The notes under the pieces were generated by a model, which searched no databases, was not told where the DNA came from, and was given only the letters and a program-made list of their open reading frames with translations. The translations under genes and the position numbers were made by a program. From an uncultured Acidimicrobiia bacterium (lineage in GTDB: Bacteria; Actinomycetota; Acidimicrobiia; Spongiisociales; JAENVV01), in assembly GCA_963847455.1 (NCBI GenBank), contig CAWKAG010000056.1:12421-76420 (forward strand): DNA of 64,000 nt, in the 5' to 3' direction. Of this stretch, positions 49,301-62,573 are shown piece after piece (positions within the stretch are counted from its first letter, which is position 1; every line of letters begins with the position of its first letter).

Positions 49301-49780
49301 ATGAGTAAGTCGTGGACCGAGTTTTCCGAAGAATCCCCCGATCTGGCTACTGCCATTCGTACCCGGTTCGAGTCGCATCTCCATCACGTAATCGCCACCG
49401 TGTCGGCTAGCGGAGCCCCACGGGCCAGCGGGACGGAAATCCGATGGTGGAACGACAATGCGTGGCTCGGTTCGATGCCCGGTTCACGCAAATCGGCCGA
49501 TCTGAAGGCAGATCCCCGCTTTTCTATTCATAGCCATCCCGACACCAGCGAGTTGCTGGAAGGCGATGCCAAGCTGGCCGGTGCTGCCGTGTTGGTTGAC
49601 GATGCCGCGGTTCGGCAGGCCTACTCCGAGTTCATCGGCCACCCCGGCGACGATCCCTACGACCTGTTCCGCCTCGAGATCTCGTCGGCCTCCCATGTGA
49701 GGGTTTCCGATGACAAAACCCACCTGGTCATCACCTCGTGGTCAGCCGACGGCGGTACGAGGGTGATCGAGCGGACATAG
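49301..49780 (+). CDS. Pyridoxamine 5'-phosphate oxidase-like split-barrel flavin/F420-binding protein
   Basis: IATVSASGAPRASGTE, SMPGSRKSADL..DPRFSIH and DAKLAG.A. Confidence 0.88.
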   Translation: MSKSWTEFSEESPDLATAIRTRFESHLHHVIATVSASGAPRASGTEIRWWNDNAWLGSMPGSRKSADLKADPRFSIHSHPDTSELLEGDAKLAGAAVLVDDAAVRQAYSEFIGHPGDDPYDLFRLEISSASHVRVSDDKTHLVITSWSADGGTRVIERT

Positions 49781-49817
49781 CTCAGCTCCCGGCACTAACG
49801 GAGCCACTTCTCGACAA

Positions 49818-50648
49818 GGTGCTCGTTCCGGCACGTCCGGCTAATGGACGGTCAAACGACATCGGATTCAGACGCCTTCTCAACGATGCAGCGACACAAC
49901 ATGACCACCTGGTCGGTCCCCCAGCGGAACGAAGTGGAGCGCCGCATCAGTCCCCCAGCAGAACGAAGTGGAGCGTCCGGCGTCGGTTCCCGAGCGGAAC
50001 GAAGCGTGGCAGACGGCAGCGTGACCTGCGGTCACACAGCAGAACGGCAAGCCGTTCTGCCGACGGACTGGCAGCGCCAGTCGCGTGGGGGCTCGTTCCC
50101 AGCAACGGCACGTCCGGCTGGACGGGTACACGCATCGGATTCGGACGTCTTCCCAACGATGCAGCAAACGACGACCTCACCGGTCGGAACGTAGTGGAGC
50201 GTCCGGGGAGAAGGTTCCTGCGGCCGGAGCGGAGCGTAGGTCGGAGGTAGAGGGGCTCGTTCCCAACTAGGGACGCCGGCTTATGGATAGTCGCAGACAT
50301 CGGATTCGGGAGCCTTCTCAACGATGCAGCAACCACCAACAGAGCGACCACCTGGTCGGTCTCCCCAGCGGAACGTAGTGGAGCGTCCGGGGAGAAGGTT
50401 CCTGCGGCCGAAGCGGAGCGTAGGTCGGAGGTAGAGGGGCTCGTTCCCAACTAGGGACCGCCAGGCTTATGGATAGTCGCAGACATCGGATTCGGGAGCC
50501 TTCTCAACGATGCAGCAACCACCAACAGAGTGACCACCTGGTCGGTCTCCCCAGCGGAACGTAGTGGAGCGTCCGGGGAGAAGGTTCCTGCGGCCGGAGC
50601 GGAGCGTAGGTCGGAGGTAGAGGGGCTCGTTCCCAACTAGGGACGCCC
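49818..50648. repeat. Array of 4 complete plus 1 partial hairpin-rich tandem repeats (units of 270, 164, 184 and 186 bp)
   Basis: Anchor GG(G/T)GCTCGTTCC at 49818, 50088, 50252, 50436 and 50622; the last two full units are nearly identical; shared modules CATCGGATTC..CAACGATGCAGC and GGAACG(A/T)AGTGGAGCG. Confidence 0.95.
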
Positions 50649-50749
50649 AGCTGAAGTCGTTGCCCGGAAGGATCCCGCGGGTTGGTCGTCCGTTCGGTAA
50701 GAAATCTTTCGAGTTTCGTTGGCGGTTTGGGCGTTTTCGGAGTGTTTTA

Positions 50750-50771
50750 TGTCACTGGTGGGTCGTATTGT
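50750..50771 (+). promoter_or_regulatory. RecA-NDp/PafBC-type DNA-damage promoter (leaderless)
   Basis: TGTCACTG-gtgggtcg(8 nt)-TATTGT, then 6 nt, then ATG; the mycobacterial consensus is tTGTCRgtg-N8-TAnnnT. Confidence 0.75.
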
Positions 50772-50777
50772 TGGGGA

Positions 50778-51864
50778 ATGGAAGACGATAGTTTGCGATC
50801 GGTTACCACCGACCAACTCGAACAAGATTTCATAGCGGACGAACGGCTTATCGGCCGGCTGCGAGCCCGCCAAGCGATCCGCCTGGCCGAACTCGACACC
50901 CGCCAGGTCCACCACGGCGACGGATGCCGGACCATGGCCGAATGGGTCAGTTCCCGAGCCGACGTGTCCGCCCACACGGCCAAACGGCTCGTTGCGGTCA
51001 CGAAACGCATGATCGACCGTCCCGACCTCCTCGGATCACTTGCTGCCGGTGACGTGTCGTTTGAACGAGTCGAACAGATCGCCCGCACCACCCACACCAT
51101 CGACGACGTCGCCCACCTCGACATCGCCTCGGTTGCCCGGCTGGTCGCCAAAGAAACCCGCCTGACCCGCCATGACGAACAAGACGCCCACGCCGCCCGG
51201 TTCCTGACCATGCAACCCAACCTGGACCAGTCACTGTGGAAAGTGTGGGGACAGCTCGCCGGACTCGACGGGGCCATCGTCCAAGACGCCCTGTTCGCCC
51301 GAGCCGACACCTTCCCCACCGAATCCCACCAAGATCTCGAGGGCGACCCGCAACGCTGACGCTCTCGTCTCCATCGCCCAGGACTCCCTCACCGCCACCA
51401 ACCCGGACGGTTCTGCCGACGCGGTGGCTGACCTGGTTGTGTTCGTCGACACCCGCCAAGGCCAAACCACCAACGGATATGTGCCGGCCGGACCGATCGT
51501 CGGACCCAACACCATCGACGAACTATTGTGCACCGGCTCCGCCGTCGATTACGTCACCCTCAACGCAGACGGCGAAACCCTCAACGTCGGCCACAAATCC
51601 CCCAAGATTCCCCGCAGGTTCCGTCGGGCCGTTCTCGGACGTGACGACGGCTGCTGCGTCGACGGCTGCACGTCGCGCTACCGACTCCAAGCCCACCACG
51701 TCATCCACTGGGCCGACGGAGGACCCACCAACGCCAACAACCTCGTCACATTGTGTTGGTTCCACCACCACGTGATCATCCACCAACGCGGCTTCACCAT
51801 CAAACCCGACTCACCCCGAACCCGACTCCGCCTCCAACGCCCCAACCGAGCCCCACCCGACTGA
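50778..51864 (+). pseudogene. DUF222 (REP13E12-like) HNH endonuclease, +1 frameshift at about 51326 (probably a sequencing error)
   Basis: DUF222-type N-terminus; after the frameshift SRATRNADAL, RRAVLGRDDGCCVDGC, AHHVIHWADGGPTNANNLVTLCWFHH. Confidence 0.9.
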
Positions 51865-51869
51865 ACCAG

Positions 51870-51895
51870 GCGGCGGCTATACCCGGTGCCGCCGC
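51870..51895 (+). terminator. Perfect 8-bp GC hairpin after the HNH gene
   Basis: GCGGCGGC-TATACCCGGT-GCCGCCGC. Confidence 0.6.
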
Positions 51896-52088
51896 TGACA
51901 AGTCCTACTTCTCGCACTCAAGCGACCACCCCATCCGGTAGCTATCCCCAAACCCAAACGACGATTTCGCCGCCAGGCCTCGATCGGACGCCGTTCACCC
52001 GCGTCCAACAGCCGTCCTCGATGTTCCAACTCCACATTGGTGTCCTGCGCCGCTGCCGGCGACCTCTCGTTGCTGCGGATTCGAACCC

Positions 52089-52143
52089 TTGACAAGCGGA
52101 ACTCCACCTGGCAAGCTCACACATAGACCGCCATCTATATGTG
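52089..52143 (+). promoter_or_regulatory. Sigma-A-like promoter with a downstream dyad operator (ArsR-like)
   Basis: TTGACA (52089-52094), 17 nt, CAAGCT; dyad CACATAGA-CCGCCA-TCTATATGTG (52120-52143). Confidence 0.6.
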
Positions 52144-52177
52144 ACTAGCTAGACCGCAGTCCGAAACGGAGTTTCTC

Positions 52178-53398
52178 ATGTCGAATCCAACCGTAGTCAT
52201 TGGTGCGGGACCGATCGGTCTCGCTGCCGCCGCGCATCTTCTCGAGCGCCGAATCGACACTGTGGTACTCGAAAGCGGGGCCAACGTCGGGACATCCATC
52301 CGCGAATGGGCTCACGTACAGCTCTTCTCCAACTGGCGATCGGTGGTCGATAGTTCTGCTGTTCGACGACTCGAAGCGACCGAGTGGACCGCACCTGACC
52401 CGACAGAGTTTCCAACCGGGGGCGAGTTAGTTCACGACTACCTCGAACCGCTTGCCGAAACCATGGCCGACGTTGTTCGGTTTGACCACCGGGTCGCTGC
52501 TATCTCCCGCGACGGGATTGACAAGGTAGTTACGAGTGGCCGCGAAGCGGTCCCGTTTGTGATCCGGGTCGACACGCCAAATGGCCCACGGGAGCTCAAG
52601 GCAGACCATGTCATCGATGCGTCAGGAACGTGGGGAAACCCCAACCCCATAGGCTCATCGGGCTTGCCCGCCCATGGAGAAGACGAACTCGCACAGCACA
52701 TCGAGTACGGGATGCCAGATGTCCTTGGCCGATTCCGGTCCCGCTACACCGACAAACGCGTCCTGGTCCTTGGTGCCGGTCACTCGGCGGCCGGCGTGCT
52801 CCTCGACCTTGCCGACCTCGAGGCTATCGCTCCGAGAACTCGACCCATTTGGGCCATCCGTAGGCCAGATGCAGGAAAGGTCTACGGTGGCCTGGCTGAC
52901 GACGAACTCGAACAGCGTGGCAAGATCGGCTCACAGCTTCGAGACCGTGTCGAGTCGGGGGCCATTGAGCTACGAACCGGATTCCGCGTGTCCGAGCTGA
53001 AACTAGGTCGAGACGGCATCGAGGTGACCGGCCTGACCCCGGGCGGCCAGTCGAGCCCATCGATCATCGTGGACGAGATCATCGCCGCAACGGGACAACG
53101 ACCGAACCCGGCCATAACTCGAGAGCTGAGGCTCGATGTGGACCCTTGGCTCGAGGCTCCGCGTGCATTGGCTCCGCTGATCGATCCGAACATCCACTCA
53201 TGCGGCACGGTACCGCCGCATGGAGTGAGCGAACTCTCCCATCCCGAACCTGACTTCTACACGGTCGGCATCAAGAGCTACGGACGGGCCCCAACCTTCC
53301 TGCTCGCTACCGGATATGAGCAGGTTCGCTCGGTCGTCGCTGCAATTGCCGGCGACTGGAATGCCGCCCGCCGCCTGGAACCCAGCCTGCCTGCCTAA
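52178..53398 (+). CDS. FAD-dependent oxidoreductase of the ars-operon flavoprotein type (ArsO/ArsZ-like)
   Basis: IGAGPIGL, HVQLFSNW, IDASGTWG.PNP, GAGHSA, HSCGTVPPHG and KSYGRAPTFLLATGYEQVRS. Confidence 0.85.
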   Translation: MSNPTVVIGAGPIGLAAAAHLLERRIDTVVLESGANVGTSIREWAHVQLFSNWRSVVDSSAVRRLEATEWTAPDPTEFPTGGELVHDYLEPLAETMADVVRFDHRVAAISRDGIDKVVTSGREAVPFVIRVDTPNGPRELKADHVIDASGTWGNPNPIGSSGLPAHGEDELAQHIEYGMPDVLGRFRSRYTDKRVLVLGAGHSAAGVLLDLADLEAIAPRTRPIWAIRRPDAGKVYGGLADDELEQRGKIGSQLRDRVESGAIELRTGFRVSELKLGRDGIEVTGLTPGGQSSPSIIVDEIIAATGQRPNPAITRELRLDVDPWLEAPRALAPLIDPNIHSCGTVPPHGVSELSHPEPDFYTVGIKSYGRAPTFLLATGYEQVRSVVAAIAGDWNAARRLEPSLPA

Positions 53399-60804: not shown

Positions 60805-62013
60805 CTAGAACATCTCCTGGCAATACGCGGCGACATCGCACCGCAACATGTCCCCGAGCAGAGCGATGGCCTCAGTGGTACCTGTGAGACGACCAACGCG
60901 GGCCAGTTCGAAGGGAGATCGGTCGCCCAGATATGCCGAGGCGAGCGCCGCTACGTCAACCGACACATCCGGGTCATCCTCAACTACGTCACACAATCCC
61001 CGTCCGGCAGACACCGTAAGGCGATAAGTCTTCTCGTTCCACGGACAAACCGGATCCGCCACGGCCAGGGTCACGGTGCCATCGCGCTGATACGAGCGTT
61101 CCTGGAGGGCTGCCCGAACATCAACCAGCCGCAAGTACAGAGCATCGCTGACTTTGCGGGCCGCCAGCCGGGGATCCAACAACCACCAGTCGAACGGTCG
61201 GTCGATCGGATCGTTCCAATTAACGACCTCATCGACCAGATCGATTTCGGTGAGGAACTGCCAGACAGCGCGTTCAGATATGTCGTCGGCCCCGAACGCC
61301 TCCGACAGCCTCACGATCTGGCGACCCTCGTCATTCCACTTCGCACGGAAAATCGCATAACCCACATCGACGCCATCCACCGATGCAACCAGGCGACGAT
61401 GGGCACTCCAGCCTTCCCGCCGGTCCGGCGGATCTGACAACAACCCTTCCCACCAGGAGCCGTCCCTGGTGAACATACCGGGGCGGCGCTGACGCTCCAC
61501 ATCAAAGAGATCCGGGAAGACTTTGAGCGCCTCGTCTGAATCAACCAATCGGAACTGGTGACCTGATGCGGGCGCACCGATAAACATTCCCGGGCGTACC
61601 GTCAACTTCAGATCATGGTGACGGGCTGCCAATCCATAGCCAAAACGACCATAAATGGCAGCCTCGGAGGCCCAGAGGGTCGCCAGTGGCTCGCCCCGTT
61701 CTAAACAACCGGCGAAGTGTTCGACCATGAGGCGACGAGTGATGCCTCTCCGCCGGTGCGTCGGCAGGATGGCAACGCCGGTCACCCCGCTAGTTGGCAA
61801 TTGCCCACCAGGAATGGTGGTTTCAAATGGGAATGAGCCGAAGGTTGCGACCAGCGTGGCGCCGTCTCGGGCAGTCGTGGACCGCTCGAGCCGGTGCCGG
61901 CGTTTGGCGCGCTCCAATTGCTCCGGTGAGGTATCGGCAGCAAACGCGACTCCCATGGTCGCGAACCACTCGTCGAATTCCTCGGCTGCCACCGGTCCAG
62001 TCGTGATGCTCAC
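60805..62013 (-). CDS. eis: Eis-like GNAT acetyltransferase with an SCP2 domain
   Basis: VAILPTHRRRG, LWASEAAIYGRFGYG, LYLRLVDV, LASAYLG and C-terminal Phe. Confidence 0.93.
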   Translation of the reverse strand: MSITTGPVAAEEFDEWFATMGVAFAADTSPEQLERAKRRHRLERSTTARDGATLVATFGSFPFETTIPGGQLPTSGVTGVAILPTHRRRGITRRLMVEHFAGCLERGEPLATLWASEAAIYGRFGYGLAARHHDLKLTVRPGMFIGAPASGHQFRLVDSDEALKVFPDLFDVERQRRPGMFTRDGSWWEGLLSDPPDRREGWSAHRRLVASVDGVDVGYAIFRAKWNDEGRQIVRLSEAFGADDISERAVWQFLTEIDLVDEVVNWNDPIDRPFDWWLLDPRLAARKVSDALYLRLVDVRAALQERSYQRDGTVTLAVADPVCPWNEKTYRLTVSAGRGLCDVVEDDPDVSVDVAALASAYLGDRSPFELARVGRLTGTTEAIALLGDMLRCDVAAYCQEMF

Positions 62014-62072
62014 CTCACGCAATCTAAACCCGGAGCGTCGACAGGGCCGGACAATTATCGGTAAGTCGTTTC

Positions 62073-62094
62073 TGTCACTGTGAACCATTACCGT
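62073..62094 (+). promoter_or_regulatory. Second RecA-NDp/PafBC-type promoter (leaderless)
   Basis: TGTCACTG-tgaaccat(8 nt)-TACCGT, then 7 nt, then ATG 62102. Confidence 0.72.
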
Positions 62095-62101
62095 GTCAAC
62101 G

Positions 62102-62573
62102 ATGGAAGTAGAAGTAATTCGATCGGCTCGTCGCCGAAAGACCATCCAGGCCCGGCTCGAATCGGGGGTCCTCAAAGTGATGGTCCCCGATACCTTGACC
62201 GCCGAGCAAGAAGCCCATTGGGTTGATGTGATGCGGACCAAGCTCGCAACCAAGACGACGACAACCCCCGGGCTTGAGGATCGGGCGGCACGACTTGCCG
62301 ACCAGTACGACCTCAAGCGTCCAAAGACCGTCTCGTGGTCGACCCGCCAGAACCACCGGTGGGGATCATGCACGCCCGCCAATGGGAGCATTCGTCTGTC
62401 GTCGCGTACTGAGAGACTTCCCCGACTGGGTGATTGACTACGTGCTGATCCATGAACTGGCCCACCTTTCGGAGTCCGGCCATGGGGCGGCCTTCAAGGC
62501 ACTTCTCGCCCGCTACCCGAAGGCCGAACGCGCTGAAGGCTATTTGATCGCCAAGACCGAAAACCCCACCTAA
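62102..62573 (+). pseudogene. M48/YgjP (DUF45)-family zinc metalloprotein, +1 frameshift at 62408 (probably a sequencing error)
   Basis: RSARRRKT, RWGSCT and IRLSSR, then (other frame) LRDFPDWVIDYVLIHELAHL..GHG..F; one extra A at 62408. Confidence 0.9.

Follow-up and report, generated by a model that had tools for sequence, protein, structure and literature searches.

Promoter Architecture Upstream of the DUF222-HNH Gene

This locus raises the question of whether a DUF222-HNH gene from the class Acidimicrobiia is transcribed from a DNA damage promoter of the kind described in mycobacteria. The gene lies in the window, the whole stretch of 64,000 nucleotides analyzed here (C56:12421-76420), which belongs to a 2.97-Mb assembly of 84 contigs with 61% G+C and 86% completeness (label G000; contigs are labeled C with a number). 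In mycobacteria, the signal that activates PafBC is single-stranded DNA (PMC11804915); the activator inserts between region 4 of SigA and the DNA, with helix 3 of PafB reading a GTC triplet at approximately -26 and sigma region 2 reading the -10; promoters without a -35 element are thereby active only after damage (PMC8635444). These promoters follow the pattern tGTCgg(N10)tA(N3)T, a -26 element combined with a canonical -10 and no -35 (PMC8635444; PMC6789036; PMC11804915), of which the GTC triplet is the only strictly conserved part (PMC8635444). The pathway has been studied in the class Actinomycetes only, with a predicted span across the phylum, and the published promoter alignment comprises 14 species, all from the class Actinomycetes, with the Acidimicrobiia absent (PMC8635444). 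Our literature search found no paper linking the Acidimicrobiia with PafBC. The evidence below indicates that the segment 50750-50780 is very probably a PafBC-dependent "hybrid" promoter (RecA-NDp or P1 type) in an Acidimicrobiia form, TGTCAC(A/T)(C/G).

Read directly from the window, the + strand at 50750-50780 is TGTCACTG-N8-TATTGT-N6-ATG; the original prediction had this arrangement exactly right, and the ATG opens the DUF222 frame. The elements are as follows, with the evidence for each in brackets.

50746-50749, + strand: T-rich stretch TTTA, 5' of the -26 element (sequence)
50750-50757, + strand: -26 element TGTCACTG, the predicted PafB-binding box (sequence; position-specific enrichment; genome consensus)
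50751-50753, + strand: GTC triplet inside the -26 element (sequence)
50758-50765, + strand: spacer gtgggtcg, 8 nt (variable among orthologues at the first two bases only)
50766-50771, + strand: -10 hexamer TATTGT, of the TAnnnT type (sequence)
50772-50777, + strand: discriminator TGGGGA, 6 nt between the -10 hexamer and the start codon (sequence; orthologue comparison)
50778-50780, + strand: start codon ATG, also the predicted transcription start of a leaderless mRNA (genome-wide spacing; ATG kept in orthologues)

Every feature by which a PafBC-dependent promoter can be recognized from its letters is present in 50750-50780. No sigma-70-type -35/-10 pair was found anywhere in 49700-52200, which rules out a canonical sigma-70 promoter near the gene; the hexamers located 16-18 nt upstream (GTTTTA, TGTTTT, and GTGTTT) match TTGACA at no more than two of six positions. 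A search of 50700-50850 for the SOS box TCGAAC-N4-GTTCGA found none at the promoter, the best match having three mismatches and falling inside the coding region, and a LexA-controlled promoter was set aside for this gene. When a position weight matrix (PWM) was trained without this site and without its paralogue on contig C34, the site scored 13.9 bits and ranked 35th of about 6 million genome positions; the core members of the regulon score 20-33 bits with the same matrix, well above it.

What the sequences show directly is the motif with its enrichment, regulon, and conservation, and the presence of the regulator; binding of PafBC, induction by damage, and the position of the transcription start at this promoter we infer by homology with mycobacteria. 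DNA damage would give rise to single-stranded DNA, and this would activate the PafB-PafC heterodimer. In this "sigma adaptation", the latter would insert itself between the DNA and region 4 of the housekeeping sigma factor, with PafB reading the GTC of the -26 element while sigma region 2 would read the -10 hexamer TATTGT. The first transcribed base would be the A of the ATG, which lies 6 nt past the -10, or a base adjacent to it; the mRNA would have no leader and would encode a nuclease-like protein of the DUF222-HNH (13E12) type.

A REP-like array of approximately 186-bp units occupies window positions 49818-50650 upstream of the gene. Similar arrays are found upstream of the C34 paralogue (C34:103004-103712) and of the closest orthologues (loci L005, L008, and L013), none being seen upstream of the 87-88% identical orthologues at L006 and L007; shorter copies of a repeat unit of approximately 95 bp are scattered over at least ten contigs. 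The original prediction had placed the array outside the transcript. Its end at about 50650 lies 128 nt upstream of the predicted transcription start, so that by this start site the array would indeed not be part of the DUF222-HNH transcript; read-through across it from a co-oriented PNPOx-like gene (49301-49780) is possible.

Distribution of the Motif in the Genome

The pattern TGTCAC-N10-TAnnnT occurs twice in the window, compared with 0.17 expected from shuffles, and 25 times in the whole genome, with an ATG or GTG located 5-8 nt past the -10 in 17 of the 25 cases. To assess the enrichment without a preconceived motif, we counted every hexamer at every offset across all 783 TAnnnT-N5-8-ATG/GTG sites that open reading frames of at least 100 amino acids. 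The strongest signal among these candidate leaderless starts came from TGTCAC at offset -16, seen 13 times where 0.14 were expected (93-fold enrichment). The core is strict, as a search allowing one mismatch adds only two leaderless sites, and the resulting genome consensus is (g/c)g(a/t)(a/t)tn-TGTCAC(A>T)(C/G)-N8-TAnnnT-N6/7-ATG. The N6 gap between the -10 and the ATG of the DUF222-HNH gene is common to 16 other sites in the genome, and the leaderless start that had been predicted is consistent with this genome-wide N6/N7 spacing.

The genes preceded by the motif include recA, uvrB, two UvrD-type helicases, a PD-(D/E)XK (Cas4/RecB-like) nuclease, a ComM/Mg-chelatase-like ATPase, Uma2 and REase-ARP nucleases, an M28 peptidase, and a YgjP-like HEXXH peptidase, the last of these within the window (62073-62573). 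Six of the seven DUF222 genes carry a PafBC-type box upstream, five of them with a TAnnnT -10 and the sixth (contig C63) as TGTCACAG-N8-GACAAT-N6-ATG; in place of such a box, the seventh (contig C70) has a canonical TTGACC-N17-CATAAT promoter. The motif is thus strongly enriched before repair genes and other DUF222 genes, and its lack of enrichment at repair genes had been named as an outcome that would speak against the original prediction. The exact pattern proposed there for scanning, TGTCA(C/G)TG-N8-TANNNT, did less well: it has three matches in the 2.97-Mb genome, namely the DUF222-HNH site, its 89% identical paralogue at C34:103798, and window position 62073. It finds no repair gene and misses recA because most sites have an A at position 7; we therefore dropped it as a regulon pattern in favor of the working consensus TGTCAC(A/T)(C/G).

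The second site in the window and the gene behind it are:

62073-62094, + strand: second promoter of the same type, TGTCACTG-N8-TACCGT, then 7 nt to an ATG at 62102 (motif scans)
62102-62573, + strand: gene for a YgjP-like (HEXXH) metallopeptidase, frameshifted near 62385 (PF01863, 22.7 bits, below the cut-off of 26)

The IHELAH of the YgjP-like gene falls in its second frame. An open reading frame on the minus strand (60805-62391), encoding an Eis-like GNAT, overlaps this gene; its domains start only at residue 134, which puts its probable true start near 62000.

LexA Boxes and Other Predicted Damage Promoters

The genome contains a LexA layer of damage control as well as the PafBC layer. A fragment of lexA is located at the end of contig C5. 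Another subfamily of DUF222-HNH genes, whose proteins start with MFE or MFD, has perfect SOS boxes (TCGAACATATGTTCGA) overlapping the leaderless ATG; such perfect boxes are found at the DUF222 genes of C70 and C84. The spacer and the second half-site of the LexA box TCGAACnnATGTTCGA contain the leaderless ATG, so that the operator doubles as coding sequence for the first residues of the MFE/MFD proteins. The positions are:

C84:3374, C70:62128, C3:1616, and loci L009, L011, and L012 (in these loci approximately 20-40 nt before the match start): LexA box at DUF222 genes of the MFE/MFD subfamily

In most MFE/MFD copies the LexA box directly follows the PafBC box, an arrangement that would place a putative dual control by PafBC and LexA over +1. 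The recA gene (C5:5559-6482, minus strand), which is split over two frames in the assembly, has an SOS-like box TCGAACGTCTGTTCGT approximately 20 nt upstream of its PafBC box TGTCACAC-N8-TAACGT. This layout can be likened to that of mycobacterial recA, with its LexA-dependent P2 and its LexA/RecA-independent P1. A further perfect SOS box is found at C63:45735, between a TTGACA-like hexamer and TATCAT, before an open reading frame of 240 amino acids. Going by the LexA-controlled mutasome cassette, we presume that this frame may be ImuA-like and would then be in keeping with a LexA core regulon.

PafB and PafC in This Genome

The presence of pafB and pafC was the genome check that the original prediction called for, their absence counting against it, and both genes were found. 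The genome has only two genes with a WYL domain, which are adjacent on contig C6 in the order prcB-prcA-pafA-pafB-pafC-tatA-tatC, followed by a large helicase-like open reading frame; this is the canonical actinobacterial arrangement of the Pup-proteasome locus. The best solved relative of the upstream WYL protein is chain 7p5x_AY (E = 6e-28), PafB of Mycobacterium smegmatis in the cryo-EM complex of RNA polymerase with PafBC (7P5X); this chain is deposited as "Transcriptional regulator-like protein" and was taken as PafB by its residue numbering. For the downstream protein it is 7p5x_AX, PafC (E = 2e-31).

C6:33279-34133, - strand: PafB gene, in which residue H43 corresponds to S45 of M. smegmatis

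Among the published residues of PafB that read DNA or contact the holoenzyme, R8, A43, R46, R50, K52, R56, W70, and Y76 are kept. In helix 3, FHRMFERDK aligns with FSRMFERDK, so that the GTC-reading arginines R46 and R50 are conserved; Trp70 of the wing is conserved too, and S40, E42, and S45 of the M. smegmatis protein are replaced by N, V, and H. In PafC, D62 is kept and GDLMD aligns with GDLID.

Conservation in Orthologues, Distant Homologues, and recA Promoters

The -26 element of the DUF222-HNH promoter is unchanged across six orthologues. In five orthologues from other Acidimicrobiia metagenome-assembled genomes (MAGs), with 87-98% identity, TTT-TGTCACTG, the -10, TGGGGA, and the ATG are all retained, the only differences being at two bases of the spacer and at one N position within the -10. 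Taken alone, this carries little weight, since the coding DNA next to the promoter is just as well conserved. The flanks of four distant homologues (41-44% identity) show no similarity; three of these homologues carry a TGTCACAS box and one carries CGTCACAC, each at an equal distance to the -10 and with a leaderless ATG. With pafBC present, six of seven DUF222 genes boxed, and the box found at these homologues, the link from PafBC to DUF222 genes that was proposed for this distant class is supported at the level of sequence.

To extend the comparison to the class, we surveyed 30 recA upstream regions from the Acidimicrobiia for NGTC-N12-TAnnnT. Exactly one match was present in 19 of the 30, and C occupies base 6 in 17 of these 19 boxes; the forms listed are TGTCAC (13), TGTCGC (3), CGTCAC (2), TGTCAG (1), and TGTCAT (1). 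The remaining 11 regions, in which no recA box was found, belong to family f8, family f10, and two genomes of family f7; the f8 genomes, of approximately 1.1 Mb, also have weak or absent PafB matches. As a positive control, the same procedure applied to other classes of the phylum recovered TGTCAGTG, the textbook form, in genomes of 7.5-9.2 Mb, and the recA boxes of other Actinomycetota lineages read TGTCAGCG, TGTCGGCA, TGTCCGAC, and similar forms. TGTC is constant across lineages while bases 5-8 drift from one lineage to another, which agrees with the published statement that the GTC triplet alone is strictly conserved (PMC8635444). The site had originally been described as a G-to-C variant: the C is present, yet it is not special to this site, being part of the class-wide TGTCAC(A/T)(C/G) and lying outside the invariant GTC.

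The DUF222-HNH Gene and Its Frameshift

The gene shows a DUF222 domain followed by a C-terminal HNH motif, as in the 13E12 family, with the two domains in two reading frames:

50778-51359, + strand: first frame, 193 codons, N-terminal part with DUF222, premature stop (PF02720, 27.7 bits, cut-off 24.4)
51337-51864, + strand: continuation in the +1 frame with the HNH domain, stop codon at 51862-51864 (PF01844, 29.9 bits, cut-off 21.4)
51869-51896, + strand: 9-bp G+C-rich hairpin directly after the stop, a possible terminator without a T-run (-24 kcal/mol, z = -2.5), also present after the C34 paralogue

The frame is interrupted by one extra base near 51336 in comparison with intact orthologues of 361 and 367 amino acids, and in the C34 paralogue one base is inserted at another place and 12 nt are duplicated. 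Comparison with that paralogue alone would read as an 11-nt deletion in the window copy, an interpretation ruled out by the intact orthologues, which resolve it into the 1-nt insertion here and the 12-nt duplication in the paralogue. Single-base indels abound in the assembly: frameshifts are seen in recA, in the YgjP-like gene, and in several further open reading frames, and pafA and pafB are apparently shortened at the C-terminus. The frameshift in the window copy is probably an assembly artefact, because such indels occur in many essential genes.

Alternative Explanations

The box might be a genuine damage-regulon element read by a regulator other than PafBC, such as a ClgR-like factor, another WYL protein, or an alternative-sigma system. 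RecA-NDp was assigned to ClpR/ClgR in older literature, as cited in PMC3381160 and PMC5656591, the link between box and PafBC in the Acidimicrobiia is drawn from mycobacterial homology, and four genomes of family f10 have a PafB but no box before recA. We nevertheless consider another regulator unlikely: a -35/-10 pair would not fit the short 10-nt gap between box and -10, which has the exact -26 geometry of PafBC promoters, the GTC-reading arginines of PafB are conserved, the only two WYL genes of the genome are the pafBC pair itself, and in family f8 the recA box is missing along with a convincing PafB. Chance resemblance without promoter function has to be weighed against base composition, from which we estimate approximately 10 matches to TGTCAC-N10-TAnnnT in 6 Mb (both strands), and the PWM score of the site is modest (13.9 bits). 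The match is, however, separated by exactly 6 nt from a start codon that is conserved, and it is kept in five orthologues, and the 93-fold enrichment at its position and the boxes at six of seven DUF222 genes leave coincidence with a negligible chance of being correct; together, the enrichment, DUF222-gene, and orthologue data effectively refute it.

If the DUF222-HNH gene were a decaying pseudogene, one copy of a selfish element, the promoter would be a relic in which the motif survives only because the duplication is recent. Both the window copy and the C34 paralogue are frameshifted, at different positions, and promoter and coding DNA are similarly conserved among close orthologues, as would be seen in this case. 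Intact orthologues nevertheless exist in two other MAGs, and the break itself probably stems from the assembly, given that many essential genes, among them recA and apparently pafA and pafB, carry single-base indels here. Distant homologues, moreover, keep the box despite unrelated flanks, and we regard a relic as very unlikely. A PafBC-dependent promoter in its Acidimicrobiia form is thus the reading that we retain.

PafB Residue 45 and Base 6 of the Box

Base 6 of the box is C in the Acidimicrobiia, in place of the G of Mycobacterium- and Streptomyces-type genomes. We compared the recA box with PafB residue 45, the residue directly before the first GTC-reading arginine, in 38 genomes (loci L073-L110). 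All 22 sampled genomes with C at base 6 have Arg, His, or Lys at the position of S45 of M. smegmatis, and Ser, Asn, Ala, or Gly occur only together with G at base 6. Genome-wide counts of TGTCRC versus TGTCRG are 31 versus 7 in this genome, 39 versus 4 and 26 versus 1 in other Acidimicrobiia, and 9-13 versus 69-97 in genomes with Asn. There are exceptions to this split: genome G023 has Ala and yet shows 10 TGTCRC versus 3 TGTCRG, and the Lys genomes of family f26 mildly prefer G. These contradict a simple code in which residue 45 decides base 6. That the base-6 switch reflects a coevolved change in PafB specificity, with residue 45 as the candidate determinant, is a tentative idea of rather low probability, the contrast being phylogenetically confounded. 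If true, a whole regulon of at least 20 promoters would have been rewired together with one residue of helix 3.

Relationship to Known Systems

The closest known counterpart is RecA-NDp, or recA P1, of Mycobacterium, which has the same geometry (TGTCxx-N10-TAnnnT with the GTC triplet and no -35), the same pafBC pair in the Pup-proteasome locus with R46/R50 and W70 of PafB kept, and the same regulon center of recA, uvr genes, and helicases. The Acidimicrobiia differ in bases 5-8, which are AC(A/T)(C/G) compared with the mycobacterial (A/G)GTG, and in that 17 of the 25 sites here are predicted from sequence to be leaderless, with the ATG 6-7 nt past the -10. Other single-stranded DNA-sensing WYL activators of SOS-independent damage genes are DriD of Caulobacter, SiwR of M. 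smegmatis, and a WYL activator of Acinetobacter; those are homodimers with their own operators, whereas here we find a heterodimeric PafB/PafC pair and the PafBC-specific -26/-10 layout.

The gene itself belongs to the same family as the multicopy 13E12 (REP13E12) genes of M. tuberculosis, with DUF222 and a C-terminal HNH, and seven copies are found in the genome here. A damage-regulon promoter is common to both, and the MFE/MFD subfamily has a LexA and a PafBC box as described for Rv2100. Unlike the DUF222-HNH gene studied here, which has no SOS box, most of the M. tuberculosis members are directly LexA-controlled (PMC3381160). The premise that REP13E12/DUF222 genes belong to the PafBC regulon hence applies to part of the family, as the damage-induced 13E12 genes Rv1128c, Rv1148c, Rv1945, and Rv3466 do contain RecA_NDp (PMC3381160).

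Implications for the Acidimicrobiia

The Acidimicrobiia promoter extends the known PafBC system and is not a new system; PafBC promoters in this class are an expected extension and come as no surprise. This genome, together with the 30 recA promoters of the class, provides sequence-level evidence for what appears to be a working PafBC pathway in the Acidimicrobiia, a largely uncultured class of marine and soil bacteria. The consensus TGTCAC(A/T)(C/G)-N8-TAnnnT-N6/7-ATG can be used to annotate damage regulons in MAGs. Judging from the distribution of the predicted promoters, DUF222-HNH genes have apparently stayed in the regulon over very deep divergence; this suggests that these genes have a real role in the damage response or exploit it.
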